Shown here piece after piece: positions 1 through 59,388 of a stretch of 64,000 bases of DNA. Each line of letters begins with the position of its first letter. The first letter of the stretch is position 1. The position numbers and the translations under genes are program-made. The notes below the pieces were generated by a model. It was not told the origin of the DNA and did no database searches. It was given only the letters and a program-made list of their open reading frames with translations. The DNA comes from Moniliella sp. 'wahieum' (taxonomy: Eukaryota): assembly GCA_003971905.1 (NCBI GenBank), contig RSEE01000060.1, positions 62,001-126,000 on the forward strand, in the 5' to 3' direction.

Positions 1-1110
1 ACCGTGGACGGTAACCGGGGTAACCGGTTATACGTATAACCCGTAACGCGTAAACGTTAAATGGTGGAGGGCTAGTACGTTTTGTGACATGTGACATCTA
101 AAAGTACACCGAGTCGTGTGTACACCACAGCGATTGTGGGTTTGAGAAGGACCGTTACACGCTACGCGTTACATCATACCATACCGGGTTACTCGGTCAC
201 ATGTTGCACGCTACATGGATGTTCCGAGTCACTATCGCCTGTGGGCACACCGAAGCACCCAGATGCATCCAGAGGCTGTGAAGGGCACGATTGGGGGGGG
301 GGAAAGTGGGAGACACTCGCTATGAGTCTCGATCCATTTAGATCTTAGAGAAAGTGTGCATATACGTACCATAGCGTAGAATAGCATGATGCATGGGTCA
401 GATGAAGCTTGGAGCTTGAAGCTCTTGAAGCTTGAAGCTTGAAGGCCGGAATAGTGGCACAATAATCTGAAGCTTTTGAAGCTTGAAGAAGCTTGAAGAT
501 GTTTTGCCGCCGTGTGATAAAGTGTTTCTGCCACAAGCATATGTGGATTGGTTATCTCGATCATCGATTATCGACTAATCTACCATGCACAACTGCACGA
601 TGTATAGGCACGAGATCGTTGAACGTTGACACATTGACCGTTGATACGTTGATCGACCTAGGAAGAGAAATATATTGGACCCATGTGGATTCAACATATA
701 TTCAACACGGCTGAAGTTCAACGTTGTTCAGCCTTGAAAACGTACGTTCAACGTTCAACGTTCAACGTTCAACATTCGCTGTTCACTATAGTTACCTAGT
801 TACCGGTTACCGGCACATGCACAACTTGAACAGGTCCTTTATGACGGAGAAGACATAACGTTCACGACGTTCATGTCATGATGAACAAGTTCATCGATTC
901 ATTTTCATCGAATGCATCGATCCTCGCTCAGGCGCTCAGCTGAGCGCTGCTCGTCGAGTGATTATCGAGAGTATCGATAAACCATCTGCGTCGTTAACGT
1001 CATTAACGTCATTAATCATCGACCTCTTGAATATGGTGGACTGTGGCGAGCGAGGCTCTCGGGAATATTAGTCGCAGTCACTAGTCACATGTCACATGTC
1101 ACATGTCACA
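1..1110. repeat. Island of 7-bp-period palindromic repeats
   Basis: AAGCTT-G x2 at 428, AACGTT-C x3 at 750, ACTAGT-C-(ACATGT-C)x3 at 1080-1107, plus degenerate ACCGGT/ACGCGT units. Confidence 0.9.
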
Positions 1111-1137
1111 CCTGGAAAGCTTATTAAAGTTGGTATC

Positions 1138-1351
1138 TGTTGGGACCCGTGGTCCCGTACTTAGGCCAAGGCGCCTCATCACCCTTCACCCCTGATTTGT
1201 CCTCCGAAGCCTCCACGTGTACTCAGGCTTGTCTGAATCCCTGTCTCTAGTGTGGCACAAGGCTTAGACCGCAACCACCACCATCGCGATTGCATTGCTC
1301 TACATTTCCAGAGGTTCTTCACCCAATCCCTTGGGTTCCTCCGGTCTTACA
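1138..1351. mobile_element. Solo LTR, family A (214 bp)
   Basis: TGTTGGG...CTTACA termini; perfect 5-bp TSD GTATC (1133-1137 and 1352-1356); near-identical to 45754-45969. Confidence 0.92.
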
Positions 1352-1489
1352 GTATCGCCGTCGATGGCCCCCCACAACGAATGGTTTTTGAACACGTTGA
1401 ACAACGATTCGATCAACTGATCAACGTGGTCAACGTCGAGTCGCACGTTGTCCGACGGATGGGTGAGAGGTTCAGCCGCTAGCCAAGGC

Positions 1490-2900
1490 ATGGTTACTCC
1501 GATTACTCCGGTTACTAGTTACTCCGGTCTAGTTACCAGTTCCATGTTGAAGCCTACGGCCTACCTATACCAGGAGATACTATGGTTACAAGTGCCAAGT
1601 AGGTACTTGTCTGTTGCTAGCGTTTACTGGTTACCTTACCATTACCAGCCTGTTGCCGGAGATGGATTATCGATTATCGAGATAGGTATATCCTGGAATC
1701 GACGGGCATCGATGATCGATGGTCGGTGATCCGGTGATCCGCGACTGTCTGAGATCTGAACCATTGGTGATCGATGATCGATGATCGATGATCTTGTTTG
1801 GGGATGCTCGATGCCAATGCCCCCCAATGCCCCGCCTGCCCGTCTTCTCCCGAGCAGGCAGAGGATGGCAGGTGCGCCGAGCGCTGTGGGCCGAACGGGC
1901 GCCTGCCCGTGCTACATACGCTGCCCTCCGTTGTACGTTGTACGCTACGCAAGTGGACCGTGGAGTGGCCGTACAGCAGAGCTAGTAGCGCCCAGACACG
2001 CAGAGCATGGGGTGGCATGGTGCGTGGTGGCGCACAGCCGCCCATGGCCCAGGCGGACGGGCTATCAGGATATCAGCACCTGAGGATATCAGTGTGACGT
2101 GGGACATGGGACATGTACATGTGATGTGCCATGTGCTCGGGGATATGTCCCGTTCAAAAGAACAAGAGAACCACCAGTTTCGGCGGCAGACAAACGGCCG
2201 CGCTCGGCGCTCAGCCTGAGCTGAGCACGCGTGCAGTAAGGGCAGTGCGCAGGGGTAGGGTGGCCCAGTGCGGTCCAATGTCCAAAGCCTAATCCGCATC
2301 CTCGGGCCCTGAGGCCCTGAGGCGCTGAGCCCGAGGCCTGATATACCGGACAGATGAGGCGCAGAAGCTAGCTGTGGCACCGCCCCAGCCCACCCCTTGG
2401 CCACCGGGGCACAAATGGCGGCTGTGTGTGATGTCATTGAACACCCTGCCCAGGCCAGCACACTGTGACCTGGTGCCCGATGCTTCCCTGAGGCTTCCGA
2501 AGCTTCAAGCGAAGCCTCAAGCTCTCAAGCGGCAAGACTGCAGTCGATTGGCTGGGCAGCACCGAACGCAACGCCCTGAGGCCGAGGCCCTGAGGAGTAG
2601 TACCCGATAGGCTGAGTTAGCAGTTAGCAGTTGCTAGTTGCTAGTTACTAGTTATCGGGCATCGGCTACCGCTTGCCGGACTAACAACATGTACCAGTTC
2701 CTAACTCCCCTGTGCGCTCGAGGCGCTCCGGGCCTGAGGAGGCTGGGGCCCTGAGGCCTGGGCCTGAGCGCCTGAGCGCCTGGGCCCTGGATGCACATGG
2801 CCTCAGCCTGAGGGCCTGAGGCAGCCTGAGGTCTGGTGCCCGGTGCCATGAGATCTGATCCCTGGGATCGATGAGATCGATGACGCTTCAAGCTTCAAGC
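1490..2900. repeat. Island of 7-bp-period palindromic repeats
   Basis: ATCGAT-G x3 at 1770-1790; degenerate AGGCCT-G/AGCGCT-G runs at 2300-2340 and 2730-2830; CTAGTT runs at 2615-2655; GCTTCAAGCTTCAAGC at about 2885. Confidence 0.85.
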
Positions 2901-3052
2901 CCCGAGCCGCCGAACCGCTGAGGGAGGGTCCGCCACCCCCCTAAAACCAAACCCATGTCAGAAAAAGATACAAAAGGGGCCCTGTTCTCGTCCTGACTCC
3001 GTGTTCCCCACCGCCACCGTTCTCCTCTCTCCTCTCCCCCACCTCTCGCACC

Positions 3053-3244
3053 ATGAAGTTCTCCTTTGTCGCTATCTTTGCCGTTGTGGCCGCTGTTGCC
3101 GTCTCGGCTGCTCCAGCCCCCCCCCCTGCTCCTGAGGGTGGTACGTGGCTTGCATCCTTACTCTTGGGATTCGTTTTTCATTAATCGTTGTTGCTGACAT
3201 GCTTTTGACCCGCAGACATGTGGTGCCAGGGCTGCGCCCGCTAA
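3053..3244 (+). CDS. Small secreted peptide precursor, 38 aa, two exons (3053-3140, 3216-3244): MKFSFVAIFAVVAAVAVSAAPAPPPAPEGDMWCQGCAR
   Basis: CACCATG start after a CT-rich leader; classic signal peptide; intron GTACGT(3141)..GCTGAC..CAG(3215); splicing keeps frame and ends at TAA 3242-3244. Confidence 0.8.
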
Positions 3245-5805: not shown

Positions 5806-6422
5806 GGGGGGGCTGGGCTGGATCGGCAGGGGCGGTGGTGGTGGTGTGGTCGGGGGCTGCTCGGGCTGGCTGGGCTGGGACGGGATGGCGGACCGGAGGG
5901 GTTAGTGAGTACGCCGGGCCCAGGGCCCAGCACGCAGCCCGCAGCAGCGCCCTCGCGCCGCTGGCCCAGCGCTCAGCGCTCACGCGCTGGCTGGCCCGAC
6001 TGCCCCTGCCTCCCGCGGGCCCAGAGCGAGGGGCGCGCCGGCAGCCCCCGCGCTGGGCGCACTGGGTGCAGCAGGGGTGCACTGCTGCACTGGGCCTGCA
6101 CCGGCTGCGCGCGTGCGCGCCACTTGGGCCGGCTGCTTGTCGCTGGGCCACGCCAGAGCCACGCCGTGCCTGCCTTGGCCTGCCTCGGCGCACCCGGCCA
6201 CGAGGGGGGGGTGTGACAGCTCCCACATCACATGTCGCGTGCGACTGGCAGCAGGCACGTGACGCGCGCATGCCCCCGTGCAGCTTACATCAGCAGGACA
6301 CTTGCCGGGGAGCAGCCCAGGCACAAATTTGCTGTTGGGAGGCACGTCCACATCGGCCCTCCACTCTGACCGGCAATCGCCGCGCGCCATCCGCCTGCCT
6401 GCGCCCCCTGCCTCTGCGCACC

Positions 6423-8186: not shown

Positions 8187-9008
8187 GTTGTTTCCATGTT
8201 GATATCAGTTCGATGTGTTGTTCAAACCCCCCACCCCACCCCCCCATTCCAGCTGTACACTTGTCAGCACGTTGCATGGATTTTGTCCTCGCGATCCCAT
8301 TCCCCAATTGTCCGTGACATGTGGCACTCCTCTACTGGCTTTCCTTACCGCTGAGGGCTGAGGGTTGAGGCCGGTGACCACGGTCCTCGCCCCGAACCCA
8401 TTCCCCATTCGTGGTCTACGCTCCAGACGATGCAGGCGAAAGCTTCTCTGCCGTTCTGGCGGTGGCGCTATTTGTTGTAGGATCAATTTCGTTTTTTCCC
8501 ATCTAATCCCGCTCGCGGCGCGGGGCATGACCTCAGGCCAGAACAGGTCCTCCCTCGTAGTTTGAGGTCAGCTCAGTTCCCATGGCTGCACGCTCAATGA
8601 CGCGGACGGAGAATCGTTGTTGTACCCAAAGTAGAAGGCCGGCCATCCACGTTGCGGCAGCATGGGGGGAATGATGCAGAGGTATGTGTATGGACCATAG
8701 AAGGTGTAAGGTGTAAGCAGATAGCGAAACGCACACTTCAGTCTGAAGCTTGAGCTTTAGCTCCACGCCGGGCCGTCGCCGCGGGAACGACTCGCCTATT
8801 GGTAGCCGGTACCGTTTCCTGCGGGTGTGTGCAATGAGACGAGGGGGAGCTGGTCTGGGGGGTCGGGAGCAGGTGGCTCGAGCTGGCCCATGCTGCGCCA
8901 AAGGCGGGGAACAGCCATTGCAGGGGCACGGCGGGGCAATCTGCAACACTTGTACAGACAGCTGGGATAACTAGTAACTAGGGGTGGCAGACTGGATCAG
9001 TTCTCCTT

Positions 9009-9048
9009 GAGCTTGAGCTTGAGCTTGAGCTTGAGCTTGAGCTTGAGC
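9009..9048. repeat. (GAGCTT)n hexanucleotide microsatellite
   Basis: About 6.5 perfect tandem copies. Confidence 0.95.
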
Positions 9049-9406
9049 GTGTGAGCCTGGGACTGAACTTGAGCTGCTCAAACGTCAACTTGAGTTGGGC
9101 AGAGCCCCGCTGCAGCTGAACCTTGAGCCTCCAACCTAGCTACGGACGTGCGACTGTGCTGGTACGTCGCCCGACAGATCTGCATGCATTGTAACGAGGT
9201 GCTGTCGGGCAGGATGACAGGCAAGCTCTGGTCCTGACCTTAACCTAACCTGGGCCCTGGGCTAACGGGTGGAAGAGCAAAATGGGGGGCTAAACAGCGA
9301 GACTCCACCCGCTGGGGAGCAGGCGGTTGGAAACCCCAAGAGGCCCTGGGCGGGGGAGGAGGGAAGAGGAGGGAGGGAGGGGGGGTAAACAATGTCGAAC
9401 CAACGA

Positions 9407-12574: not shown

Positions 12575-14070
12575 GGCGCCGGGCACGTGGGGGGGGAGGC
12601 GGCGAAAGGCGGCCAGGAGACGCGTGGGGGGTGGGTTGGATGGGGCCGGCAGGAGCGCCGCACGAGCTGGCCTGGCCTGGGTTGGAGGTGGCCGAGGGTG
12701 GCCGAGGGTGGGCGGGATGCGGATGGACGGGATGGACGGGATGCGCTGGATGGGCGGGATGGGCGGGATGGGCGTGGGGATGGACTGGCATAGGCGCCAT
12801 GCCATGTCACATGTGATGTGGGATGCAGGGTGAGGTCGGTCTGAGAGCCCCCGCAGTGTTCCTGAGGCATCACGTGACGTGTGACGCCACCCGGCCAAGC
12901 ACAATGGAGGCCCCACAGGGCCACTGTGCTGCTGGCCCAGCCGCCGATTGAAAGTTGAAATGCACCTCGGGCGCCGCGGCGCTGGATCGTTGCGCGTGGA
13001 GCAGGTCGACCCATCTCACCGGTCACCCATCCCCTCCATGCCACACGTCAAACCACCGCAGCACAGCACCAGCCACCCCCATCCCGCTTGTGCGCCAAAA
13101 AAATACCAAGAAAAGAAAAACGATACCGCCGGCAGACTCCTACCGAACAGTGGACCATCAGTACAGTGGTTATGCCTGCCATACTGGCGGGGGCTGGCAG
13201 AGCCTATAGCCTGAAGGAAGGGTGTTCCCATTTGCGTTAGCCCTGCCGCCGAACCTGTCACACTCGAGAACCTAGCAATAAAAACTCGTAGCTTGTTTTG
13301 AATCCCCACCGGCACCCTTGAACAATTCCCTACGCCACCACTCCTCGAGGAACCCATCATGACTCTCTCGGGCATAGCATAGCAGTTGGCACCCAGAAAA
13401 GTTAGCTCCTTCCATCATGGAGTTGCTTTCCATCCAATCTTGATCTTATACCGCATTGGCCTTGGACGCCAGGACGTCCTCTTTATCTGTGATCGAATCG
13501 CAACTCCTTTTGGAGAGGTGTTTCTTCTGCCTCAAATGAAACGATTAGGTCTTCGGACTTCTTCCTTACGACAGGGCCGGGAGGAAGGGGACTGCTTATC
13601 TTTCTCCGCTCATCGTCGACATCAACTTTGCCGCCCGCTACTTCCTGCCCAAGCTCCGCCACTGTACCGAATTCACATATTCGCACCGTTTTGTTCGCCT
13701 CCCCATCTTCCAGCAAGCCACCCTTGACACAACCCTTCTACATCCCGACTTCCGCAAGCTCCGACCGCATATCCGCTGACTTAACAAAGTCTCTGCATCT
13801 GCACCTCACACCCTGAACCAACCCAGTAGGCAGGTCGTGCAAGGGAGCCCTCCGGCTCGCCTTGCTGGATCTATGGGCGGAACTAACCGCGATTCGGTAG
13901 ACTAGATGCATACAGTCGTTTTGATGCCATTGACGACCTCGGCCGGAATGCAGCAGCCCGGCAGGAGTAGGACGACCCCGTCCAGGAGATCAGGCAGGAA
14001 ATCAAGGCAAGTTCCCAGCGGGAGGGATACCGACAACCTCGCGGTAGGGCATGCAGGGTAGGTGCCCAGT

Positions 14071-19118: not shown

Positions 19119-19189
19119 TCGAAACATCAGTAAATCGGTAATCAGTATGTTCGGGAACCTTAATCTTAATCAGGTTGAACGTGCATCAT

Positions 19190-37594: not shown

Positions 37595-37620
37595 TAGTCC
37601 CCCGATTGGTGCATAACACC

Positions 37621-42730: not shown

Positions 42731-43914
42731 GTCATCATGCATCAGGCCTCAGGGGTCACCGGTCATCCAACAGTCAGCATCCTCCTTTATCCCACCTTCC
42801 ATTCTCGCCCCTTCCCACATTTCTTATCCAACTCCTGACCGTTTCCAGCCAATTGATTGAGTAATACAGGCAACCTCTCGTCTCCACTTAGCTGCCTCAT
42901 CTTCATCATCCAACCTCATCGCCCAGTCGCGCGAACTTTCCTTCAGTGGCGTCGATTCCCCCTACCACAGCATATCGCGTGGGTTCCTTTCACAGCTACG
43001 TCGACGGCCGCCCCTTCCCAGCTTCAGCTCTGGCAGTGTTTTCCCTCCACTGCACCTACCCGTCCCTAAGCCCCGGACGCTTCAGACACGTTACTACCCC
43101 CAAGCGGCGCATACGCAGCCTTGGCACGCGTACAGCCGCCTCGGATTCACGCCACCAAATAGCCCAAACCTGAAACTACCGTGAGTACTCCACCTAAGGG
43201 ATTGCACCCCATCAACCTGGGTGAGAGCCTCCTGGCAGGGCCCAGGGTAAGGATCGAGCCCCCATCCACCGATCATCCTTGCTCCATCCCCTCCCATGTC
43301 CCACCGATCCCCTTCTTGTCCCCCCTTGCCCCCCCCGCCCCCCCCCTCAATTGCTCTCGACCACTCCGCCTTGTGCCTCGGTTACTATTTGCACCACCGC
43401 CCCTCTTTGAGCCAGTCAGAGACGCGTCGGGTGGTCATCCGTCTTCGAAATAAGCATTGTGGGGAGTCGGCATCCCTGTGGCCATGGCGCCGGCAGTGGC
43501 GGCACAACTCTCGGCGCGGATTGAAGGCACACTGTGCTCGAGCGTGGTCGTTGGTGCGGCAAGGGGGGCACCGCCAGTGAGCACGGGTGGGGGGCATTGT
43601 AAGGTAGTGGAGGACGCGTCGACGCGACTTAGGTGTCATTTAGGTGTGATATGCCCGATTATTAGCCAGCTGGCGCAGCAAGCCTCCCCCCGTCACGTGC
43701 AGGCAAGGGAGCAGTAGGGTTGTTGGCGGATTTGATGGGTACTCGTATATGGAACTAAAGGATACTCACCGGTCACGCGTCGCCGTTGCCCCATACATCG
43801 AGATGGAGCAGAGGTGGGTCGATGAACGTTGGAGACAAGCCAGTATAATATTTCGGTGGTGGATATACGTGTACACTTTTTGATCCGTTCCGAGTGTCGC
43901 AATGGGAGAATGTA

Positions 43915-44215
43915 TGTAAGGTCGGAGGAACCCAAAAGGAATTGGGTGGAGAGCCTGTGAAAAAGTAGAGCAAACCAAAGGCAATGGTGGCGCCATCAAG
44001 CCTTACGGGCTCAGAGCCTCTCATGCACATGCTACACCACTTGGAAGAAACAGGGGGTTCGAACCACCAGCCAGGTGTATACACATGGAGGCTTCGAAGG
44101 CCAAGCTTGAAGCTTGAAGAAAGAGGGGACAAAAGAACGATTAATGGTATGCGATAAATCGACCAGGCACTCAGGGCTCAGGAGCTTAGGCGCCTTGGCC
44201 TACGCACGGCCAACA
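43915..44215 (-). mobile_element. Diverged LTR related to family A, inverted, with insertions
   Basis: TGTAAG..CGGAGGAACCCAA..ATTGGGTG..GTAGAGCAA..GGAGGCTTCG..AGGCGCCTTGGCCTA..CCAACA matches the reverse complement of 1138-1351; no TSD found. Confidence 0.8.
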
Positions 44216-44224
44216 AGACGGATC

Positions 44225-44479
44225 TGTTAGAGGGTACTGCTAGGGTTCTCCTGCGCGGCCCTCAATGGATCGGTGACGCTCGCCTAGCCGAGCGGAAGCG
44301 TTCCGCTCGCAGGCCGCGCACGCCCTGCTCGCTCCATCTCCCTTCTCTCTCTCCTTTCTCCTTCCCTTCAGACGTTGCTTGAAGACTTGTGGCTCACCAC
44401 TTTGCCTTCACGCCTTGTCTGAAGGCTGCTTTGCAGCTGATCCATAGGATCGCGAGTGCTCTCAAGTCGCACTCTAGCA
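44225..44479 (+). mobile_element. Solo LTR, family B (255 bp)
   Basis: TGTTAGAG...CTCTAGCA imperfect inverted termini; perfect TSD GGATC (44220-44224 and 44480-44484). Confidence 0.9.
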
Positions 44480-44739
44480 GGATCTTGGTCTGGGTTAGAA
44501 CGAAGAAAGGAATGGCAGAGTACCTAAGAGGATCGGGACACGAATGCTGATGTGTGGTACATGTGACAGACACCCTCAGGTATTCAATTTTCAATGTTTA
44601 GTTAGCACTTGGCGTTTATAAAATTGTTCCAGGCCATTCGCTCTCGCCTGCTGGTAGTACATACTACGGCCTGCCTAATCTTGATGATCTGGATAATTGA
44701 TAATCGGAAACCAGATGGTCGGAGTGGGCGATTGGTGAT

Positions 44740-47520
44740 CTGTGATCGATGATCTAGATGATCGGGAACGATGTGATGCATGTGACGCTGACGAGAGTGA
44801 TAAAGCTTAAAGCGACTAGAGGCTAGTGGGGAGGGCTGCTGCTATGTTGGTAGTGAGTAATTGTACGTATTGATGGGGAAGCTACAAATAAATCTGACAC
44901 ATGTGATTCACAGGGCCTTGGCTTCACGCATCATGCACATCATGCATCATAATGATCGATGCACTATGTCCATGTGCAACGTTCAACGTTCATATTCTTA
45001 GATCTTGCCCGTTAGCGCGTTAGCGTTCCACGTTACGCCGGGAGTGTCATGCATCACCCATTGCATCCCGCGTGCTGGGCAGGCCCGCTCGTCGCGTTGC
45101 GCATTCCAACGATGCCGGTGCCAGTATGGCCTCTATGTCCGCTGCGAACCGAGCACGAAGAAACCCGTTTTTGCCACGTGTGGGCGGGGGTGATGCAGGT
45201 GATGCTCAGGGCTCACTGTGGTAGCTGCAGTTAAGCTAGGCTGGTGCCAGCGACCCCGCGCCTCTTCAGCACACCTCTTGGTGGAGCGCGATGCACATTG
45301 TGCACGCTGGACACGATTCGGTGCCAGCGGTGGTGAGCCTGGTGAGGTTGGTGACCGGTGACCGGTGAGGCCCGAGGTGCGGCGGGGTGGGCTTGGACCT
45401 TGGGGCGCCACACGACGCACATAGTGCAGAGTGCCTCTATACGGTCTACGCGGGGCACACATTTGGGTACTGAACACGTTAAACGTACTGAGTACTGAGT
45501 TCAGTAGTAATGATCCTGGTGACCCAGCGACGTCCTAAGTGCAGTTATGCAATGACAGAGAGAGACAGGAGCTAGGTTGAACGTTGAACCCAGACTGAGG
45601 ATCAGAAGAAGAAGGAGAAGAATGAGAAGAAAGGAGAGCGGCACTAGGCCAGGGGATAGGGATACTGGTGTGGTGCCCGGATGAGTAAGATGGTCAGGAG
45701 TGCCGCGGAGGTGGCTGGCCCATAGGACCCTGGTCAACAAGTAGTGAACTCACTGTTGGGACCCGTGGTCCCGTACTTAGGCCAAGGCGCCTCATCACCC
45801 TTCACCCCTGATTTGTCCTCCGAAGCCTCCACGTGTATACTCAGGCTTGTCTGAACCCCTGTCTCTAGGTGTGGCACAAGGCTTAGACCTCAACCACCAC
45901 CATCGCGATTGCATTGCTCTACATTTCCAGAGGTTCTTCACCCAATCCCTTGGGTTCCTCGGTCTTACACTCACTGACTACCGAATGCCAATAGCCTTTG
46001 GGCTTTTCTGTTGGTCATCGAGCAGTGTCATTCATGTCTTCATTGAATATTGAGTAGTGCACTATACAGCCACTAAAGCTAGTCACTGTGGCATGTGAAT
46101 GTGACATGTGGCAGATCACCGATTTTCATCATACGTCACGCGTCACACGTCATAGCCACCACGCATCCGGAAGAACCCTCACTTGATTGAAAATGGGTAA
46201 TCGAAAATCGATCTAATCAGTACTCAGTAACTCAGTACTCACAGTAATTCAGTGGCGGCGGCGTGGGGGCTTGGGAGGCTGAGGCGCAGCTGTTAAACTG
46301 GACGGAGGCCCGCGGAGGCACTGGTCCGGCCTCAGGCCAGGTTTGAGGCCACTCCTGAGGCCCAAATAAGACTGAGCTTCACAGGTAAGGCGCTGAGCCG
46401 CTCAGGCTGAGGGGGCTCCCGTCAACGCTCAGCGACCGCCTAAGCCTCAGATCCTGGAGGCTATCTTGCAACGGGTGGCGCAACAGGGCGCAACGTGTAT
46501 CCCCCTATTAAGCTTTGTAATGGCCTTGGACCGAACCGAGATACGCCAATGTTGTCCGACTCAGTGCGCAGTCTCGACTAGCCTAGTAGCTAGTAGAGGG
46601 AGCAGCGACTAGTGAGCTAGTGACCTGACCTTGGCGCTGCCAGCAGGCCCTGCATTCAGCAATTCGATACAGATCGATGATCATCAATCTCGATGCATGT
46701 CTGCCCCATGGAAACGTACCCCCCGTACTATCCTTTAATGCTCGCTCTCTTCTTTTTACGTGTTGCTGCGTTCTGAACGACGCACTAACCATGTTCAAAA
46801 CGCCTTGCGCTTAACCCCGCCGTCGGCGCAGTCCAGCAAAAGGCAAGCAACGTGCCCTGTTTGCCCCCAGCGCCTCAGCTCCAACAGCATCACCGCGGGC
46901 GTCGCGCGTCGTTTTTGAGATAGGAGGCCCATATACGCAGTACGGATGGGCATATCAAGCCCTGTGACGGGTGGCGCTGTCTGTCAGAGAGTGTGCCAGC
47001 AACGCCAGCAACGTTAGCAACGTTAGCAACGCCCTTGCGTGCGTTGGCAGCACACGCACAGCGTAGCGCCCCCCAGGCAGCACGACGCAGCCGCACGCAG
47101 CCCCCAACGCACTTCGTTCCCAGCCCAGGCACAGGAAGGCACGCCTGTGCGAGTGGAACGAGGCGCCGTCTGCTGCTGTCTGCTGCCTCGCTGGGCAGCT
47201 CTGCCACCGCGCATCCTGCACCCTGCATCATGCACATGCATCACCGATCGTTGGTCACGCATCGCACATTATGCGTCACTGCATCACTGGTCACCGGTAA
47301 CTAGCTTCACTAGCATTACTAGATCACGAAGTCACCAGCTAGTCACTAGCACTAGTCACTAGCGCTAGTCACTGGTCCCTAGTCCCAGGCTCTGTCCCAA
47401 TCGCTAAGCCTAGGCCCTCGTTGCTCGTCACGTGTCGCATGTCATGCATCATGCATCATGCACCATGCATCACCGGCCACTGACATCATATATCATGCGT
47501 CATGTATCATACATCACAAC
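44740..47520. repeat. Extended zone of 7-bp-period palindromic repeats upstream of the zinc-finger gene
   Basis: AACGTT-C x2 near 44978, ACCGGT-G x2 at 45354, AGTACT runs near 45485 and 46218, ACTAGT-C runs at 47340-47375, ATGCAT-C x2 at 47444. Confidence 0.85.
45754..45969. mobile_element. Solo LTR, family A (216 bp)
   Basis: TGTTGGG...CTTACA; perfect TSD CTCAC (45749-45753 and 45970-45974); near-identical to 1138-1351. Confidence 0.92.
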
Positions 47521-47581
47521 ACCCGCCGCTCCGGCCGAAGACAGACTGACCTTCTGCCACGGCCTGCAACGGGAGCCACGC

Positions 47582-49650
47582 ATGTCAATATTCATTTTGA
47601 ACGCGCAGCATCACTGTGCCCAGACCAGCGCGACATACACCCTGGTCGCGCATGGAGCCCCCATCGGCCGGCCATTGCCTTCCGACAAACCGACACGGGC
47701 GCTTGGCCACAGCCACCTGCCCACCCTCTCCGCCTTCTCCATCCGCTCCAGCTTCTGTGCCCTCGTCCTCTTCATCCTCTTCATCCTCTCCACCGGCACC
47801 CTCCCCCGTACCACGCCAGCCTCTCTACCCTGCCCCCATGCGTCCCGTCGCAAGGCTACCCAAGCCGCCTGCCAGCGTGCCCAGCAGCTCCAGCAGCTCC
47901 CACCGCACCGCCGGCGCCCCGCCACGTCCCCTGCGCTCGCCGGTACCTACGACCCCACGCTACAAGACCGTTATGACCACCCCATCCCCCCTGTTCCCGC
48001 CGTCGCCCCCCCTCCTTTCTGGGCTACCGCAGCTGCCGCAGCACAGGCGACAAGCCTTGCTATCCCTCCGCAGGCTCTCCCCCATCCGCGCCACCCTGCT
48101 CGGCTCGAGCGCCCCCAAGACCTGGCATCCCTCGAGGCGCAGCGGCTCGACTCGTATGCCCAATTCAAACACTTTCTCGGTCTTGAAAAGGACGCGGACT
48201 TGCCCCCCGTATGCTCCCCAAGCGCTCTCGTGAACGGGATGGTTGCGTTACCGTCCCAGGTCAAGACCCCGTCCCAGGCTTCGGGCTTGGTATTTCCGCC
48301 TTCTGGCGTCTCTCCACGTTCAAGTCTGCCTGACGGGGCCCCGGCGCATCCAAACGCCAATCCACAAACTTCTGTCCCACCTGCTTCACTCAGTCTCGAT
48401 CGCCTGACATTCAGCTTTGATCCCTCGGGCGCCGACTTGGCCCCTGTTGTTCTGGCTGGTAGCCAACCCGTGTTTACCACTCATGCGCTCCCTCTGGTCA
48501 CAGCGCCACCGCCCCCCTGCATTCTAGCGCAGGACTGCAAGAGTGCCGAAGGGGTTTTTCGATCCGGACGCGAGGAGCGCACCGTTTCTCACATGTCGGT
48601 TGGCAAATCGACTGGCTCGCGCCGCTCGCATCCATACCGCTTGGATACCAAGAACCACCGCCGCAGCCCCTCGAACGTTTCAGACCGGTCTGATTTGAGT
48701 CCAAAGGCATCTCCCCTTGACGGGAAGGCGGCTACGCTTCCCGTACTTGCTCCGCATTCACCCATAAGCACAACCTCAGGCTCAGAGCAGTCCCGAGCCG
48801 AAAGTGCACTTGACTCACCGGCAAGCCAGACGCCCAGCGTCTTATCTCCTCCGCAGTCGGCCGGTGAAGCATCTACGGACCGCCGCCTCTCGCACCTGTC
48901 CACCTCGGATACCGGATTGGCAGAATTGGGGTTGTCTAACAAGCCCATCCACAATCTCCAAGTAACCACGGCCAAGACCAAGGCTGCCTCGGTGTCGCGT
49001 CGAAAAGCAGCGGCGCCCTTCAAGTGTCCTGTTCCTGGCTGTGAGAGCTCGTTTACGCGGGCTCTCAACTTGCGTGGTCATCTCCGCTCCCACACGGACG
49101 AACGTCCATACTCATGCCGGTACTGCGAGCGGTCCTTTGCCCGTGCCCACGATAAGCGGCGACATGAGAAGTTGGTGCGTATCCCCTTCTGTCTTGTTTT
49201 TCCTCAGCCAAACTGACATCCTCCCGGAAGCATTTGAATATCCGTCCTCATACCTGTGAAAGTTGCGGCAAGATGTTTGCGCGTGTAGATGCCCTGAACC
49301 GCCACCACCGCCAAGAAGGGGAGGTGTGCGTTCCTCGGTCCGAGAGCGGTACTTCCCCGATGCCTACAGGACCGACCCCCATGGCCCCTTCGCCCGTGGG
49401 TCAGATCTTGACCCCTACCCTACCCTATCCCCCACCGCAACTGTCCTATGCCTCATTCGGCTCTGCGTCATCAGCAAGCAGCCCTCTGGCACCGCCCACT
49501 ATGCCAACGACGGAGCTGCTCGTGCCGCACCTTCCCATGTTGGCCGACTGTAACCCCGCCGGACCGCCTATGGCCTACGTTCCTCTTGTGCCCGATGGAC
49601 TTTCGGACCCAGGGATCTGGGCCCCGCGCTTTGCTGGCCACGTGTTGTGA
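47582..49650 (+). CDS. C2H2 zinc-finger transcription factor, Crz1-like
   Basis: FKCPVPGCESSFTRALNLRGHLRSHTDERPYSCRYCERSFARAHDKRRHEKL|H..HTCESCGKMFARVDALNRH; intron 49175-49230; Ser/Pro-rich N-terminus; start codon uncertain. Confidence 0.9.
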
Positions 49651-52600
49651 TGACGGGTTGCTTACTGGCCCTTTTCCTTTCCCCTTTCCTTTCCCCTTTC
49701 CTTTTCCTTGTTCCTCTGTCGCACCTCAGTTACCTATTGGCTTGCCCTGATATATGACCACCCTATATATTTCTCCTCCCCTCCTCCTCCGCCCCTCAAA
49801 CCACTCCCCTGCGTGCTGGCCTTCGGCTTGCGGCTTTGTCTCCATTCCCTTGGAGATGCCGCCTTACTATCTTAGCCTGCCCCCTCCCTTCTTCCTCTTT
49901 CGGCTCCTACAACTCAGTTTCGACATTGGCAGGGCGAGGGGAACTCTATGAGAATTCAAGGCAAGGGGTGGGAGGCTGGGGGGCTGAATACTTTTGTTGC
50001 TATTTGGGGGCTCATCGGCCACCAGTGCACGTTCACACGTTCACACGCGAAAGCGCATCTAAACATTACTTCTACGCTCTCGCGCTCATCTTGATGGCCT
50101 GTGGGTGGGTGTTGCGGTTATCAGGTACTGGTATAGGGAGTGTGCCGAGGCCACATACTCGTACAGCCATGCCGATGCTTATGAATGATGTACTGCATGG
50201 CCGGCCCACGACGTCTCGGCTGAAAGGCTGAGGCTGAGTAACTGAACTGAGTGCTCCTGACACCTGACATAGTTTGCTCACTGTGGGGTTTCTGCCGAGG
50301 CATGTGGGACAAAGTGAGGCCTGAGGGCCTGGGGAAGCGCTAAGCTGAGCTCGCGTTGTCCCCGCCGTCCCCACGCTGGCTAGTGGACTAGGACTAGGCT
50401 AGACTACTCTTGCGCAGGTCGGTCGGGGCGAGGGGTGGCTGAAAGCTTAATAGCCAGGCTCAAACTACAGCTGGCTAGCAGCGTGCACCATGCGGTCGTG
50501 GGCGAGTGTTGCGGTGGGGGCACTTTGATCGATCATCGATCCATGCTCGGTGACCGGTGAATGTTGACCGGTGACCCCGTGGGGGCTAGGCACTAGGGAG
50601 GGGGGTGGGACGGTCCCATACATGCCCCCGCGAAGCCCGGTACAAGTGACTGGTGGCTAGGATATAGTGCGTATGACATCACAGTGAAGCTTGAAGCTGG
50701 AGGTCACGACTTCTCAAGTGCCTTTGTTCCCAGGCGCAGTCGCTGCGCGGGCATCTCGAGATTCCCATCTACTCTACCAGATCCATTGTCCTCCCGCGCT
50801 CCTCAGTTCGACATTTGAGTTGGACGTTAGACTGACCAACCCTCGGCCTCATTAATCATTTCGGCTCCGACGCGCGACTGGGGGCATCGATGACGATGAC
50901 TATAGCGAGGCGGAAAGAGACGCAGCTGTATGTAGACACGGATGCATTTCGGTGCTGCTGTGGCTCTCGCGGGGGGCCGGTGAGTTCATCTGCTTGTGGA
51001 ATATGGAAGGCTTGTGCGTGGAGGCCGGAGGGGACGCGTGTTGTCGCAGGTAGTACGGGTAATGTATGTATCTGATGCATGACTCAATGATGAACAATTC
51101 ACACAGGAAAGCGTTTTTGGTTAGAGCGTTTTTATTCGTCGGTCTCGGAGTCTGCCGACCCGGCCGCGCCGACCAGCAACTGCCGAACGCGGAGCATCGG
51201 CCGAAAGAATCCTCAAGACATCCCCCCACACTAGGGCCGTATACTAGGCAGGGACACGCTCTGCTGCTCCACCTACATAGCATTTTTCCAAGAGACGTAG
51301 GCTCGTGTCTCTTTCCATGTCCCAGGCATCGATCATCCCATCGATCCCTCTCCCCCGTCGGGTCCCGAGGGACTATAGGGAGCACCATCCCCGCCTTGCA
51401 TCTTCCTCTCTCCCCTTTCTCTCCTCCGTCGCGGTCGTGTCGGCCATTGCATGAAACCTAAGTATAGTAGCCCTCCGATTCCGGACGCGACGATCGATGA
51501 TTGGTGAAATACCACATAGCTAATCGAAAATGCCGGTAACAAGGTTCCGGATAGATATGTGAGGACTACGTACGAAATTCAAGGTGGGCAAGGCCCACAA
51601 GATTGTGAACCAGAAATTTCGATTAGCCATGCAACGTGTTGTGGGTGGGTGTGTTGGTCAAAACTGTAGGGATTTTTACACAACACAACACTATACGGTG
51701 TTGGGGAACTTGATTGGCTGTGGCTATATATAGAGCTGACTATAGTGAGTGGCGCATACAGATGCATACCACGTGCTTTTTTGTTTGTACCACAGGAGAA
51801 CCCCATTGTTTACCAATGGTAAGTTCTCCAGAACAAAAAAGATCAAGCGCCTAAAAAGTCACGAAGTGAAGAGTGGACGCCAGTCTCCGTCAACGTTCAA
51901 CTTAACTCGTATTAGTATACTCAGTGGGGAAGATGATCGAATGACCGCGCGTCAGTACTCAGTGTTAATAGACGATGTGCTACCTTCCTCTCAGCTTCAA
52001 GCTTCACTAGCACGACTCGAACACCGAACCATTGAATTTATCGGACAACCTACTTTTGTGAGCTGAAGTCCCCTATAGCCAACAGGCCTTTTAGAGGCAC
52101 GAGCAGAAAAAGTTATGTAGTAGTTTTCCCTCTGCCCCTTAGCGTCATCGACCTCATCGATGGCCGATCATTAATTTATCGTCACACGCGTCACCTAACG
52201 TCGTTGCTCTCTTTCTGTGCCTTTGTGTTTCACCCCATTCTTGCTGCCAGAGTAAGACTGGTGTACGTTGCGAAGACTTACTCATAAGCAACCTACAGCA
52301 TACCAAGGAGATCCGGAAAGACACAACGAAGGTGAGACAACGGGGGATCCTCGATCCGAGGACTATAAGTAGGCGAGACGAGGAAGAAATATTTGTGTTT
52401 TTTTGTGTGGTTTCTGCCGACGCCCGTTTGCTCCTCCGGCCACAGGCCACCTCAGGCCGGCCTTAGGCTCGAAGTGGTAAAAGCTTAAGAAGACTACACT
52501 GTATGCATGTGCTATCCAGGGGACTGGCACCTAACATCGCGTTGTTATCATATGCAACGCCAATATCCACCCGCAAGGGTCAAGTAGAAAGGAAAATGAG

Positions 52601-54775: not shown

Positions 54776-56814
54776 GCTGGGCGGGGGAGGGGGGCTGGTG
54801 GGAGAGACGAGGAAGAGAGGCGGCTGGACGGGTACTTTTTAAGTCGGCAGGCGGAGAAATTGCGTCATGGGAGAGTGATCGACAGAACTGCTGTTGATAG
54901 CAATGCACTGACCAAGCGGGCAGATATCGTATCCCCGGGCGGGGACCAGTCCGATCAGGCACTCTTCGTCAGAGCCCCCAGAAGACGAAGGCGAAGGCAA
55001 CAGGAGGTCCGTCAGCGTTCAGCGTCATCGACATCGACATCGTTCAGTACGCGCATCGATCATCGATCATAGGGAAAACGAGCGTTGGGCTTCTTCCTGC
55101 CTGTGGGCCCTCGGGGTAAAGGGGTGTAGTTTGGTGTAGTAGGGACGCTATAAGCGCCCATGCCGCTATCGGCCACTCCCATCTGGCTGCGCACGGCCCA
55201 CCCTCAGGCCCGCTGCTGCTGTTCTTGTGTGCCTTCGCGTTCGTTCTTGCGTTCGTTCGTTCGTTCGTGCGCTGCGCTGCGACGGCTGTCGATGTCGAGC
55301 ATGTCGATTTCATCGATCATCGGCATCATGCATCACAGATCATTGTAATCATTCGATGATCTTTGCGCATCCCAACCAGCACCACGGCAGTCGGGGGGGG
55401 CACAGCGCCACAGCGCCACCGCGCGCCTGCTTGGCGTGCCTGCACGCAGCGCTTCTGCTGGCCCCGTGCCTGCCGCATTCACACCATCCACATCCCTTCT
55501 CCGCCTCGCTGCAGCCACACGGTCCAACCCATGCGAGAGTCACATCGACTGTCTGCGTTGCAGCCACTGCCGCCACTGCGCAGCCCGGCGCCGATGTGCC
55601 GCGGCCCGCCTCTCGGCTTTTGTCTGTCTGCCTCGTCTGCCTATACTGTCTTTTCAGGTCTTATCGCGTTATCGCTTCCCGGCCGCCGTACCACGTGCAC
55701 CAGAATGCACCCCCCCACTTCTATTTCCGAGACGGCGGAACTGATCCGGGGAGAACACTCGCCCTTCCCCGGAGACCCTTCCTCCTCCCCTAGCGGCTGC
55801 ACCAACTCAACAGCTCCATCGTCTGGCCCTGGCCCCATGGGCTGCTTCACCATGACGCGGAGAGGAGCCCGTTTGAACGTCTTTTCACGCTCCTCAGGAG
55901 GGTACCAGCATATGTATGAACGCGAGGTCTTTTTCAGAACAACATGACCCTCAAAACACAGCAATAATTAACAACTCCCCCAAAAGAGACCATCTCGGAG
56001 GCACAACGCATGTCCCCCCATAGGGTCTCACCACTTGACAGCTGCGACGATCAAAACGATACCCGGCATCGCCAAGCGGATCACGCGCAAGGGCAACAAC
56101 TATCGACGGCTGCTGTGGGGTCAAAAAGCAGCATATACTTCTTCTATGGCTAACCCCAACACCGATCCCCCATGTCCCTACACTAGCAAACTGATTGTTT
56201 TGAGAGTAGGCCGTCTCAAGACCTCGCTTTCCTAAGACTTCGAGCGACGGCAGCCAGAGCGCCGAGATCATCTTTTCCGCCCGAGTTGATCCAGCTCTCT
56301 TCCCGGAGCGCCGTCAGAGGTGGGTAGGAGATGCGTTAAAGGGCAAAAGATTCCTAATACACTACATACTGTAGGTGCCAACCACTGATTTGGTCGGAAC
56401 TTGTGTTCCTACTCGCCCCGTCCCCACGTCTACTATATAGCCCTCCCATATACGACCACATTCATCTGGCAGACGCAGGCCTGCTTCCGTCAATGAACTT
56501 AAAATGATTAGCGAGGCCAAAGATGGGCAAGTTCACATCAGTCGGAACATTTAAACACCACAGACAGAAGAGCGAATGCGACTGTGCTACAAACTACTTG
56601 CAAATTCCAGACCACTGCCACTACCGCACAACCGACTGCGGCCAGCCAAAGACTCCTGGCGTGAAGTGCGTATTCAGAGAGAATATGAATCTGTGGCATT
56701 TCCCCTTCTATACACACCCACACGCTAGCAACACGTGGCCACGAGCATCGTGACGACGCATACTGCAACGTAATCGTTTCGGTAAACACGCATGTACTTT
56801 GCGATCACACGCGA

Positions 56815-57196
56815 TTAAAGACCAGGCAGGTTCTGGCCCGTGAGCGACTTGAAGCCCGACTCGAGACCGTTGCTGATCTCCTGGGTCTGGTTCTGGCTCA
56901 GGTCGTGGCCGAGGACCTGCTGCTCGCCGTACTCAACAGCCTTGTCAACATAGTCGTTGGTGAAGCCACCCTGCTGGCCCTGCTGCTGCTGGCCTTGCTG
57001 GCCTTGCTGGTTGCCCTGGGGCTGCTGTTGCTGTTGCTGGGATTGGAAGAGGGACTGGAAGAGGGAGATGGGGTTAGCTTTTCGTACTTTAAGGAGTATG
57101 CCTTGTGTGGGGCCATGCATCGCGCCTCCGGGACGCCTCGGCAATTGGTGACGGCAGGAGAAGAGGGGGAAAGGTGCAAAATAAACGTACGTCCAT
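56815..57196 (-). CDS. Small (81 aa) Q/G-rich fungal protein; exons 57196-57191 and 57054-56815
   Basis: ATG GAC|GTACGT..GCTAAC..CAG intron; TATATAAAA about 65 bp upstream; product MDSLFQSQQQQQQPQGNQQGQQGQQQQGQQGGFTNDYVDKAVEYGEQQVLGHDLSQNQTQEISNGLESGFKSLTGQNLPGL. Confidence 0.85.
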
Positions 57197-59388
57197 GATG
57201 TTGGAGTTGACAGTAAGTTGGTGAGGGTAATCAAGAGGAAGAGGAAGACAGAGGCGTTTTATATACCCGCCAGACACGCTTCCGCTGTGGATGGAACGAT
57301 GCACATCACGTGTGCAGTGGACGGATAAGGAACGGCGTTCGGGTGGGTGGATGGCTTGCCACAGACAAGGCGCTCGCCCTGCCGAACTGCTCGAATGTTC
57401 GTTGGACGGACATGGCGCAGACACAGCACTGGTACAGTCGCCTGCCTCGCATTGGCTGCGTACGCGTGATGATGATGCATGATGCACCGCTTTTCTAGTT
57501 GCGAGTGACTAAGTGACTCGTCCCTTGCCCGCGCGTCACTAATCACCAGTCGTTTTGATTCACCCCCGTAACAGTGGTACACTGCGATACCTTCATTGTT
57601 CATGCATCATGCATCATGCATCATGTACTCAGATGCTTCTCGGCATCATCGTGTCACCGGTCAGCCGTCACGTCACCCGTCAGCGTCACTACGCAATGGG
57701 TGGCACCCCCTTCTACTTCCGCCTAATGCATGAGTATCGAGTACCTGAGCGCATGGGTAGCCAGAACCTTGTCACTCTAACTCACTCTATAGAATCACTC
57801 ACTACCTCACTGCCTTCTCCGGCGGGGTTCCAACTATTGGGACCTATTGGGGGTGTCTTATGGCCCCTGTCTTTTGGTATGCCTCCACTTGACAGCACGA
57901 CCAGCAGATCCCCCGTCTGCTCCCACTAAACTGTTGCCATCGTCAAACGGATCTGCGATAACATCACAACCGCCACTACACTTGCCGGTCGCTGTGACAA
58001 GGGGATCACCGGTCACCGGCCGATAATTAAACGCCGTTCGGTTAGGTTAGAACACTGAAAAGGAAAAACTGCGGTTAACATGTAACACGCTGTCGAGATG
58101 GCCGCTCACAGTTTCGTTTGGTGGGTAGGCAGTCGCTGGTATAGGCCACCAGACGCTGTAGTGTCATGCGGAGGATGGCGATTTGACGGGCACAGCTGTA
58201 GAAAGGGTAAGGTGGAACGCCAAGCCGCTGAAAACGAGCATTAGAACCCGGCGTGGGGAGCAGTGTGGCCCGTTGAAGCGTAAAAATCAGATGCTCTCTT
58301 CGCGTGTTGAGAAAGCCTGAGGTCGAAAACTACGATTGTGTCTTTCGGCGGAAGCTGGAAGAGAGACTACAGAGGTAGGTATGCAGGTGGCAATAATGAG
58401 ATTGTGTAGTACGTTGCATGTGTGCACACAACGCGTCAACTGAACTGAGGGCAGGGTGTCCTGGGCCCGCCCTGATCAGGACTGACCCTCAGCGCAACAG
58501 ACCTGTTGCTGATGATTGGAGAGTATGGAGCATAGGAATTGTAAGGGTCGGGCGATACGAGTGAGACCAAGTCCCACCAAGGGAAGCACAAGATGCACTG
58601 GTAGAGGGACTGAATGAGAACAGGGTCGGCGAAGAGCAGTGACTAGTGACTAGTGAGAAGAGGTGTACCTGATTAGCAGCTATAAGAGGACCGTGATAGG
58701 AATCCTTACAAGATCGATTGGTAACTTAATCGGCAATCAGAGGGTAAATCGAGTGTGCCTATGCGACAAAATTGGTCTCGTTGAACTCGCCCTGAGCCGT
58801 CCGGGGTTGTGAAGACAACACTGATAATGAACATCGCGGATCTCAAGCTGAGGTACCGCCGACCAAAACGACCCGATCCGAATGGTGTACCATGAGAGAT
58901 CGCCCTGATTCAGCTGCTCCATTGATTCCTGGGTATCATGTATGATGGGGCCAGATAACACTGTTAGGAGGGCGCAGCTAGGTGTTGGTGCAATAGCTTC
59001 GTTCTGCTCTGGTTTAGGGTGTGAGAGCAGGAGGCCTTTCCTTTGCAGGATTGCTAGACGCCATTCGCACTTCTGAAGAGAGACACAGCAGTACTCCCTA
59101 TTCTAAAAAAGAGGGAACGGGAAAAACGGCCCGACGTACTGGACACATCGGGGCACATCGTACATCGTATACGTCCAGTAGGCTGATGAGGCGGTGGTGA
59201 TGGAGATGGGGCAACATCAAACACTATATATCACTCGGATTTCATTCACCGGTCACCTATCGCCATTTTTGAAATTGGCATTGATCATTTCGACGCGGTC
59301 ACGTTGGGTTCCGGCAGCGCGACGCGTTCACTGACCTTCATTTCTTCTTGGTTCTCTCCCCACCATCTCTGCCCAACAGCCGCTCCAC

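Follow-up and report, generated by a model that had tools for sequence, protein, structure and literature searches.

The non-coding DNA of a 64,000-bp stretch of the Moniliella sp. 'wahieum' genome (contig RSEE01000060.1, positions 62,001 to 126,000 of the forward strand; hereafter the window, within which positions are counted from its first base) is marked by a recurrent short unit in which two T-N-A trinucleotides sharing the same central base N flank a 4-bp palindrome. The pattern is real and lies far above chance: 10-mers of this form were found 111 times, against ∼2.7 expected. The commonest discrete element can be written TNAab + b'a' + TNAab (a' and b' being the complements of a and b); it consists of five bases copied directly and two copied in inverted orientation. 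The reading that we prefer, tentatively and with rather less than even confidence, is that these units are the scars of a recurrent, local, T-N-A-anchored insertion of 7 bp, arising by fold-back or template-switch synthesis and later amplified by slippage.

The window has a G+C content of 56.0%, and all counts given here come from within it. Expected values were obtained by third-order Markov simulation (30 simulations in the case of hexamer-palindrome doublets). Genes were sought by running Pfam on the 265 stop-to-stop open reading frames (ORFs) of at least 90 amino acids, and coding-like sequence was delimited with a codon-usage log-odds score trained on 2,261 Pfam-supported codons; the resulting mask covers 32% of the window and includes 97% of the Pfam-confirmed coding bases. 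An initial annotation had described intergenic arrays built of 6-bp palindromes that start with A and end with T, each followed by one spacer base, and the tandem hexamer palindromes that it named are present at all 14 of the coordinates it listed. When doublets of the form (6-bp palindrome plus spacer)×2 were counted for all 64 palindromes and spacers of 0–6 bases, the A....T class with a spacer of one base was found at 31 positions, against 0.07 expected, while each of the 27 remaining combinations of class and spacer held between 0 and 3 doublets. The accompanying statement that no comparable arrays are built on C....G, G....C or T....A palindromes is borne out for T....A, for which the count was 0 at every spacer, but there is one G....C case with a spacer of one base (GGGCCCA ×2, 5916–5930). 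Two other statements proved too narrow: all 16 A....T palindromes, and not 11, occur once single units are counted, and the pattern does not end at 59260, an ACTCAGT ×2 array being also present at 63039–63052.

Period 7 was also prominent among exact tandem repeats of at least two copies. Their numbers were 228 for period 4 (182.5 expected), 100 for period 5 (52.6), 50 for period 6 (13.6), 69 for period 7 (3.3), 17 for period 8 (0.8) and 17 for period 9 (0.1). The 69 period-7 arrays comprised 42 with a palindromic unit of the form xyTNAy'x', two centred on C-N-G, one centred on A-N-T and 24 with non-palindromic units; a tally from the array list gave 42 palindromic and 6 non-palindromic units among those containing T-N-A. 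Tandems of periods 5 and 6 were ordinary, T-N-A being present in 16/100 and 12/50, respectively; among the units of period 8 it was present in 15/17. The C-N-G-centred doublets CCCAGGG (5916–5930) and CCCTGGG (9249–9262) are, besides CTAGTAG at 46583, the sole palindromic heptamer arrays with a centre other than T-N-A.

The preference for T-N-A was evident in palindromes counted one by one. Odd palindromes centred on T-N-A numbered 357 with arms of at least 3 bases (191.6 expected), 71 with arms of at least 5 (13.3 expected) and 37 with arms of at least 6 (3.7 expected), while those centred on A-N-T were at expectation (190 versus 177.5 for arms of at least 3; 17 versus 11.4 for arms of at least 5), as were C-N-G and G-N-C centres and all even-centred palindromes across the window. 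In non-coding-like sequence, the pentamers ATNAT, CTNAG, GTNAC and TTNAA were each enriched 1.26–1.36 times, and none of the other 12 classes of odd-palindrome pentamer exceeded 1.08 times. There too, A....T hexamer palindromes had a T at position –2 in 52% of cases and an A at position +7 in 55%, against a background of 23%; T....A hexamers showed no comparable flank preference in this part of the sequence. The excess was not confined to repetitive stretches, since masking all those self-similar at lags of 7–9 bases (1,585 bp) still left 237 isolated T-N-A heptamer palindromes (134.6 expected) and 247 A....T hexamer palindromes (157.8 expected).

Pairs of T-N-A at a distance of 7 bases were found 280 times, against 131 expected; the excess lay with pairs having the same N (182 versus 36.9 expected), those with a complementary N being close to expectation (43 versus 37.4). 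When the intervening 4 bases were required to be palindromic, 129 10-mers were recovered, in which N was the same in 111, complementary in 7 and some other base in 11. T-N-A has thus been duplicated directly and not by inversion, given that N is shared in 111 cases and complementary in only 7. In the non-coding-like part, same-N pairs with a palindromic 4-nt filler numbered 106 (2.6 expected) and those with a non-palindromic 4-nt filler 62 (28.6 expected); palindromic fillers of other lengths were mildly enriched (3 nt, 20 versus 7.3; 5 nt, 8 versus 1.6; 6 nt, 3 versus 0.4). All 16 possible 4-bp palindromes are used as filler, ACGT most often (13 times) and AATT least (once). At N, C was found 50 times, G 38, T 13 and A 10, i.e. 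C or G in 88/111, with no strand bias.

The 111 units fall into 89 chains: 73 have one unit, 11 have two, 4 have three and 1 has four. The arrays that had been taken as the typical form do exist but are a minority; since 73 of the 89 chains consist of a single unit, they are the visible tip of a larger population. Where two neighbouring units share a T-N-A, their fillers are identical in 16 of 22 cases and are different palindromes in the other 6; in four of these 6 pairs two positions have changed symmetrically, and in two every base differs. Pairs of a palindrome and a non-palindrome that are distinguished by one base number only three, and among chains of at least four T-N-A at exact 7-bp spacing, fillers are mixed in 8/11. 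Different palindromic fillers that keep the identity and phase of T-N-A are hard to derive by point mutation of copied units.

The anatomy of the single unit was examined with a geometry scan, on both strands, for a direct copy D starting with T.A, followed by the reverse complement of its last k bases and by D again. The form with a D of 5 bases and k = 2, i.e. the element given above, was found 121 times, against 0.1 expected. Other values of k gave far fewer cases with the same D (k = 0, 10 versus 4.8 expected; k = 1, 14 versus 0.9; k = 3, 1 versus 0.1; k = 4, 1 versus 0.0), and so did other lengths of D with k = 2 (4 bases, 11 versus 0.8; 6 bases, 7 versus 0.1; 7 bases, 6 versus 0.0). The element is polar: the two inverted bases abut the end of D that lacks T-N-A in 119 cases and the T-N-A end in 14. 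The same shape with a 5-base D that does not start with T-N-A was seen 79 times (∼10.6 expected), some of these being by-products of arrays; this rarer occurrence at other trinucleotides suggests that the process is general in nature and has a site preference.

The boundaries of the units are sharp. Maximal exact runs at lag 7 whose unit is T-N-A plus a 4-bp palindrome, and which extend over at least 10 bp, numbered 150 (∼15 expected). Their lengths peak at 12 (34 versus 0.73 expected) and 13 (22 versus 0.10 expected) and not at 14, and 44 of the 150 start exactly at the T, the expected share being 1/7. Among the 34 runs of 12 bp, 21 have the form TNAab b'a' TNAab or its mirror image; the forms of this type listed comprise 21 12-mers and 11 13-mers, and there are 63 isolated 10-mers. 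Beyond the first mismatch, a mean of 2.06 out of 6 flanking bases keep the period (∼1.5 by chance), with at least 4/6 doing so in 20% of flanks. Because the flanks are non-periodic, the short units are discrete products and mostly not the remains of decayed long arrays.

Units and arrays avoid genes. None of the 89 chains lies in Pfam-confirmed coding sequence, 5 lie in coding-like sequence and 84 outside the mask. The absence of arrays from coding exons, as initially annotated, was upheld: none of the 42 palindromic arrays is in Pfam-confirmed coding sequence, and 41 of them are outside the coding-like mask. The density of T-N-A heptamer palindromes is 7.10 per kb in unmasked and 2.35 per kb in masked sequence, and their per-kb counts are negatively correlated with the coding-like fraction (Spearman –0.52). 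Among the 29 1-kb bins with a low coding-like fraction, 19 hold at least one unit. The positions of arrays, chains and array-rich stretches are collected in Table 1.

Table 1. Arrays and chains of T-N-A-centred units in the window, one isolated unit, and the stretches richest in arrays (no strand is assigned; ×n, number of copies; hexamer palindrome plus spacer base in brackets)
Feature	Position	Remarks
4 TAA at exact 7-bp spacing	37–60	fillers cccg, cgcg, acgt
TGTGACA ×2.1 array	83–97	
CTTGAAG ×3 (AAGCTT+G)	424–444	degenerate copies from 403
GTTCAAC ×4.3 (AACGTT+C)	744–773	
GGTTACC ×2.1 array	799–813	
5-TCA chain	1078–1110	fillers ctag, then catg three times; ACATGT+C array at 1084–1110
GATTATC ×2.3 array	1665–1680	
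GATGATC ×2 array	1708–1721	
GATGATC ×3.7 (ATCGAT+G)	1768–1793	
AGTTACT ×2	2641–2654	closes a mixed heptamer run starting at 2615
CTTCAAG ×2.3 array	2885–2900	
GCTCAGC ×2.3 array	5967–5982	
AGTAACT ×2 array	8968–8981	
TCACC GG TCACC	13016–13027	isolated 12-mer
CGTAACG ×2.4 (ACGCGT+A)	18111–18127	two ACGCGT one base apart; ∼300 bp upstream of minus-strand cyclin ORF
GTTAAAC ×2.6 array	19252–19269	
GTTAAAC ×2.6 array	19299–19316	
CCTTAGG ×2.1 (AGGCCT+T)	19376–19390	
4-TTA chain	19469–19492	fillers ggcc, cgcg, cgcc
AGTCACT ×2.1 array	19756–19770	
GATTATC ×2 array	20583–20596	
ACTCAGT ×2.7 (AGTACT+C)	23963–23981	
AGTGACT ×2.1, AGTTACT ×2.1, GCTTAGC ×3.3	28006–28049	abutting, one register; filler changes from ctag to gcgc with T-N-A phase kept
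CGTGACG ×2.1 array	28652–28666	
GCTCAGC ×2.3 array	28757–28772	
GGTGACC ×2 array	28883–28896	
CCTAAGG ×2 array	32025–32038	
GATGATC ×3.3 (ATCGAT+G)	39424–39446	
5-TCA chain, exact 7-bp spacing	42735–42765	fillers tgca, ggcc, gggg, ccgg
CTTGAAG ×2.4 array	44103–44119	
GTTCAAC ×2.3 array	44977–44992	
GGTGACC ×2.7 (ACCGGT+G)	45350–45368	
ACTGAGT ×2.3 array	45485–45500	
GTTGAAC ×2 array	45576–45589	
4-TCA chain	46129–46152	fillers tacg, cgcg, cacg
CATCATG ×3 (ATGCAT+C)	47442–47462	
5-TCA chain	47486–47516	fillers tata, tgcg, tgta, taca
GATCATC ×2 array	50528–50541	
4-TGA chain	50551–50574	fillers ccgg, atgt, ccgg
CTTGAAG ×2 array	50685–50698	
CTTCAAG ×2 array	51993–52006	
GATCATC ×2.4 array	55054–55070	
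CATGATG ×2.1	57472–57486	sole array within the coding-like mask
5-TCA chain; CATCATG ×3.7 (ATGCAT+C)	57593–57625	
GGTCACC ×2 array	58006–58019	
AGTGACT ×2.7 (ACTAGT+G)	58638–58656	
ACTCAGT ×2 array	63039–63052	
Array-rich stretch	1–3000	upstream of small secreted-peptide gene
Array-rich stretch	18000–19800	between cyclin gene and next gene
Array-rich stretch	27800–28900	upstream of lipase gene
Array-rich stretch	42200–47600	upstream of zinc-finger gene
Array-rich stretches	50200–52000, 55000–55400, 57400–58700	

The anatomy of the units suggests an elementary event in double-stranded genomic DNA by which TNAab would become TNAab.b'a'.TNAab, with a gain of 7 bases. From such an event an A....T hexamer palindrome, a T-N-A-centred heptamer palindrome and a 7-bp periodicity would arise automatically. 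A break in one strand at the 5' edge of T-N-A would be followed by a short stretch of synthesis, by strand displacement or fill-in, that copies ∼5 nt and displaces the old strand; the polymerase would then turn onto the displaced or opposite strand for 2 nt, the fold-back being a minimal one in which T-N-A forms the loop on a stem of 2 bp; and the new end would be rejoined to the original 5' end. Chains could grow because each event regenerates the TNAab site, and later events at a regenerated T-N-A, together with ordinary slippage, would produce longer arrays and changes in copy number. If a or b underwent a point change between two events, the next filler would be a different one, yet again palindromic. 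We propose that selection would purge such events from coding sequence, 7 not being divisible by 3. The direction of the insertion, the position of the break, the polymerase steps and the enzyme involved are in each case what we infer from the sequence. The model would explain why N is copied directly, why the 2-base inverted copy is confined to one side, why the repeat begins at T and why the size is fixed at 7 bp (minimal 2-bp stem plus 3-base loop), as well as the rarer variants with 4, 6 or 7 displaced bases and the weak occurrence at other trinucleotides.

The initial annotation had left the choice between a mutational or repair process and a structural or protein-binding code. Exact single units, sharp flanks, the use of all fillers, the lack of strand bias and the templated 7-bp anatomy favour the former. 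Its specific suggestion of fold-back or template-switch synthesis at TNA-N4-TNA sites survives as regards the templated insertion, but plain fold-back or inverted duplication through T-N-A is contradicted by the rarity of a complementary N (7/129, against 111/129 with the same N) and by 10-bp even palindromes not being enriched. The structural code is weakened: the single-strand folds predicted for eight arrays are weak (–0.7 to –8.5 kcal/mol), and for only one of the eight, whose predicted structure is a 5-bp stem closed by a T-N-A triloop, is the fold clearly more stable than those of shuffled versions (z below –2). Such weak predicted folds do not support a stable-structure role or hairpin-driven expansion.

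Template-switch and quasi-palindrome mutations, and snap-back insertions by polymerases, are known from the work of Ripley, from that of Loytynoja and Goldman, and from synthesis-dependent microhomology-mediated end joining. The window units resemble them in having a short copy of the opposite strand, as beside a break or fork, and local dyad symmetry. Template-switch events, however, are not known to have a fixed sequence anchor or a constant size of 7 bp, and as a rule they perfect an inverted repeat that is already there, while the window units are stereotyped, anchored on T-N-A and copy the central base directly. Flap-ligation duplications in FEN1/rad27 mutants are similar in being short tandem duplications from a nick or flap, but those of rad27 span 5 to ∼100 bp between pre-existing direct repeats and are not known to carry an inverted filler.

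Several points weigh against an origin by templated insertion. The unit anatomy could in principle arise by another route; ten of the 10-bp runs repeat T-N-A only and not TNAab; and the evidence from differing fillers rests on few cases (the 6 pairs). To our knowledge no enzyme breaks DNA at the 5' edge of T-N-A to give such a product. Rejoining across a 3-nt loop is chemically unusual, and a fold-back with a 2-bp stem is thermodynamically negligible, the hairpins predicted for the arrays being weak as well. The requirement for T and A around N and the excess of C/G at N are described by the model, which offers no explanation for them. Finally, the expected values derive from simulations of the one 64-kb window, and the coding-like mask from a home-made score.

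The main rival explanation, ahead of selected dimer sites and then of slippage alone, holds that the units are excision footprints of a cut-and-paste transposon with a 5-bp target duplication and blunt flank hairpins, the chains having been built by repeated insertion and excision at T-N-A. We consider it unlikely. Transib- and RAG-type elements combine 5-bp duplications with flank hairpins, and a symmetric target preference centred on T-N-A is known for several DDE transposases. The commonest unit in the window has precisely the form of such a footprint, i.e. target copy, two P nucleotides, target copy, and the presence of T-N-A with an identical N on both sides could be read as a retained target duplication. 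Against this, hAT elements have the target nTnnnnAn and a footprint geometry that predicts palindromes centred on A-N-T, which are not enriched. No transposase domain was detected by Pfam in the 265 ORFs, and no element bounded by terminal inverted repeats and flanked by a T-N-A, 5-, 7-, 8- or 9-bp duplication was found above chance in the window, where the only dispersed repeats are solo long terminal repeats (LTRs) and a short promoter-like repeat. The 89 chains in 64 kb would moreover call for very many excisions in a gene-dense region. Repair of hairpins gives P additions of variable length, yet the inverted part here is nearly always 2 nt, with few cases of k = 0, and its one-sidedness is unexpected for a symmetric transpososome.

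Ac/Ds footprints are described as palindromic sequences derived from the flanking DNA (PMC4561436), and the window units share with them a short direct repeat flanking a flank-derived palindrome. PIF/Pong/mPing elements have a 3-bp target of the T-N-A type with a free middle base, a likeness in the site acted on, and PIF/Harbinger elements (mPing) excise precisely via 5' overhangs of T-N-A and leave no filler (PMC4561436), unlike what is seen here. The corresponding simple duplication, T-N-A next to T-N-A at a distance of 3, was at expectation (153 versus 152) and was rejected as a model.

Further insertion models were tried and rejected. A T-N-A target with P nucleotides from a blunt flank hairpin predicts TNA/TN'A, and D of 3 bases showed no excess. 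Two-sided flank hairpins with a T-N-A loop, which would give adjacent heptamer palindromes with complementary N and unrelated arms, were found 5 times (2.6 expected), and hAT-type hairpins with a 1-nt offset failed on the A-N-T centres. Tc1-like retention of 2 nt from each element end would leave one filler per family, and all 16 occur. Duplication of a whole unit or of a 7-bp target does not agree with the 42 palindromic versus 6 non-palindromic T-N-A units or with the run mode at 12–13 instead of 14. An origin from dispersed repeats was also discarded, array families sharing the arrays only and no flanks.

Two families of low-copy repeats were aligned as possible before/after alleles, namely two copies of a solo LTR and three copies of a ∼130-bp repeat, and no informative difference was found. 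The former, at 1137–1350 and 45753–45966, are ∼215-bp copies ∼99% identical to each other, with TG...CA ends and their own 5-bp direct repeats (GTATC and CTCAC, respectively); they look like solo LTRs of an LTR retrotransposon. The ∼130-bp repeat is present at 42608–42733, 44228–44353 and, inverted, 39683–39741, with 80–87% identity. Two of its copies continue into a CT-rich tract ending in CAG, and the homology of the third stops where the TCA chain at 42735 begins.

A selective origin, in which the palindromes would be dimeric transcription-factor sites or a dyad chromatin or structural signal, multiplied into homotypic clusters, appears improbable. The units do lie in long intergenic, promoter-like regions, and four of the six neighbour pairs with different fillers change symmetrically and keep the palindrome, in a way that resembles covariation. 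In addition, the ACGCGT array ∼300 bp upstream of the cyclin ORF matches what we take to be the MluI cell-cycle box (ACGCGTNA), and it may be a mutational unit that was put to use as a G1/S promoter element. All 16 fillers, however, are used at roughly comparable rates, so that no single factor fits; the four pentamer classes xTNAx' are equally enriched. The constant parts are the T, the A and the 7-bp spacing, while the half-sites vary. Units within an array are exact copies, as expected of young mutations, no orientation bias is seen, the predicted single-strand folds are weak, and the same N is copied although it is irrelevant to symmetry.

Less probable again is ordinary replication slippage of heptamers, with palindromic units favoured by slipped intermediates that pair in more than one register, and with single units as the remnants of decayed arrays. 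Period 7 does stand out among the exact tandems, and the exact 21-mer (TGATCGA)3 from the window occurs at at least 120 loci in prokaryotic reference genomes, the estimate by chance being ∼0.3. Heptameric repeats are over-represented in many bacterial genomes, and slippage tied to the footprint of the polymerase active site was proposed as their origin (PMC4692102). Slippage, however, needs a pre-existing repeat. It leaves unexplained that 42 of the 48 T-N-A units are palindromic (1 in 16 expected), the restriction to T-N-A centres, the 12–13-bp run mode and phase bias, and the non-periodic flanks and in-register different fillers. The 73 single chains are shorter than two copies, hairpin stability does not single out palindromic units, and the other heptamers at the listed bacterial loci are mostly point variants or non-palindromic units.

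The intergenic heptamers described in bacteria include GGGAATC in Xanthomonas, GGGGA(T/C)T in Nostoc and heptanucleotides in Calothrix; they share with the window units a period of 7, an intergenic location and a variable copy number (PMC4692102). They differ in that each genome has one or a few units, mostly non-palindromic and in long arrays, while in the eukaryotic window there are 16 palindromic fillers, T-N-A is the sole constant and most units are single. Among the matches listed, (TGATCGA)n is concentrated in metagenome-assembled genomes of Gemmatimonadales and Chitinophagaceae, adjoining gene ends and often in inverted pairs, and it is also present in a cyanobacterium and others; at one of the loci it abuts other heptamer arrays (ACAATTG and ATCAATT). 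In the inverted pairs among the listed loci, (GATGATC)n ... (GATCATC)n around a short spacer, TGA is found in all three frames on the sense strand of each gene. For the window, a stop-codon module with TGA/TAA in all frames was rejected, the orientation of N being mixed upstream of a single gene, with C/G and T/A balanced.

It is very improbable that the pattern stems from an error of assembly or consensus calling, or that the arrays are repeats internal to decayed mobile elements: two low-copy repeat families do exist in the window, but at 89 places the units are surrounded by unique sequence and degenerate neighbours, they keep out of coding DNA and have no flank homology, the same heptamer array recurs in many independently assembled bacterial genomes, and we know of no sequencing error mode that creates T-N-A-anchored palindromic 7-bp insertions.

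The window is nuclear DNA of a eukaryote, densely packed with genes whose introns are short. Matches to Pfam identified genes for 14-3-3, a palmitoyl-protein thioesterase, an OPT transporter, the ribosomal proteins L6/L9, L37e and S26e, a cyclin, a secretory lipase, a protein kinase, an oxidoreductase, a C2H2 zinc-finger protein and a gamma-glutamyltranspeptidase. The closest named relative of an exon of the last is from Tilletiaria anomala (62% identity), two further entries reaching 74–82%; identity to other Ustilaginomycotina and to Agaricomycotina is ∼50–55%. By these similarities the host is a basidiomycete that belongs to the Exobasidiomycetes or stands close to them, and is related to Tilletiaria (Ustilaginomycotina). 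The sole Rfam/ARAGORN match in the window is a tRNA-Ala(AGC) gene at 62845–62941 (minus strand), which, given its length of 97 nt, probably has an intron. A small two-exon gene at 3053–3243, directly 3' of the most array-rich 3 kb, encodes a secreted-looking peptide of ∼40 amino acids (MKFSFVAIFA..., with Cys in its tail). The longest simple repeat, (CTTGAG) ×7.2 at 9006–9048 (degenerate to 9075), lies near the 3' end of the OPT transporter gene; T-N-A is present in it, but its period is 6 and its unit non-palindromic. A perfect 239-bp direct repeat (60414–60652 and 61564–61804; 1,150 bp from start to start) adjoins the S26e gene, with a 20-bp ×2.9 tandem between its copies (61368–61424), and stems from a recent partial tandem duplication or else from a problem of the assembly.

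The view that no described system matches the pattern holds for the grammar itself: no description of T-N-A combined with any palindrome was found among the texts reached by full-text searching. It does not hold for intergenic heptamer repeats, which are known in bacteria, or for exact (TGATCGA)3, which is common there. What is new here is the grammar of T-N-A with any palindrome, the single-event anatomy and the eukaryotic host, while period 7 and the unit TGATCGA are not peculiar to the fungus. If the units are scars, they would represent a new sequence-anchored mutational signature in a eukaryote, one that shapes most long intergenic regions (89 chains in 64 kb); they would offer a handle on the birth of short dyad-symmetric motifs and tandem clusters in promoters, and a pointer to a new nuclease plus polymerase activity. 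The abundance of heptamer repeats in bacteria, itself unexplained, may be connected with the same phenomenon. It is conceivable, although we regard it as somewhat doubtful, that a lineage within the Ustilaginomycotina possesses an undescribed endogenous mechanism of T-N-A-anchored, 7-bp templated insertion (5 nt direct plus 2 nt from the opposite strand), in which a site-preferring nickase or domesticated transposase and a turn-around polymerase would continuously seed promoters with tandem dyad-symmetric hexamers. If this is true, the seeded tandem hexamers would be ready-made raw material for dimeric transcription-factor sites.

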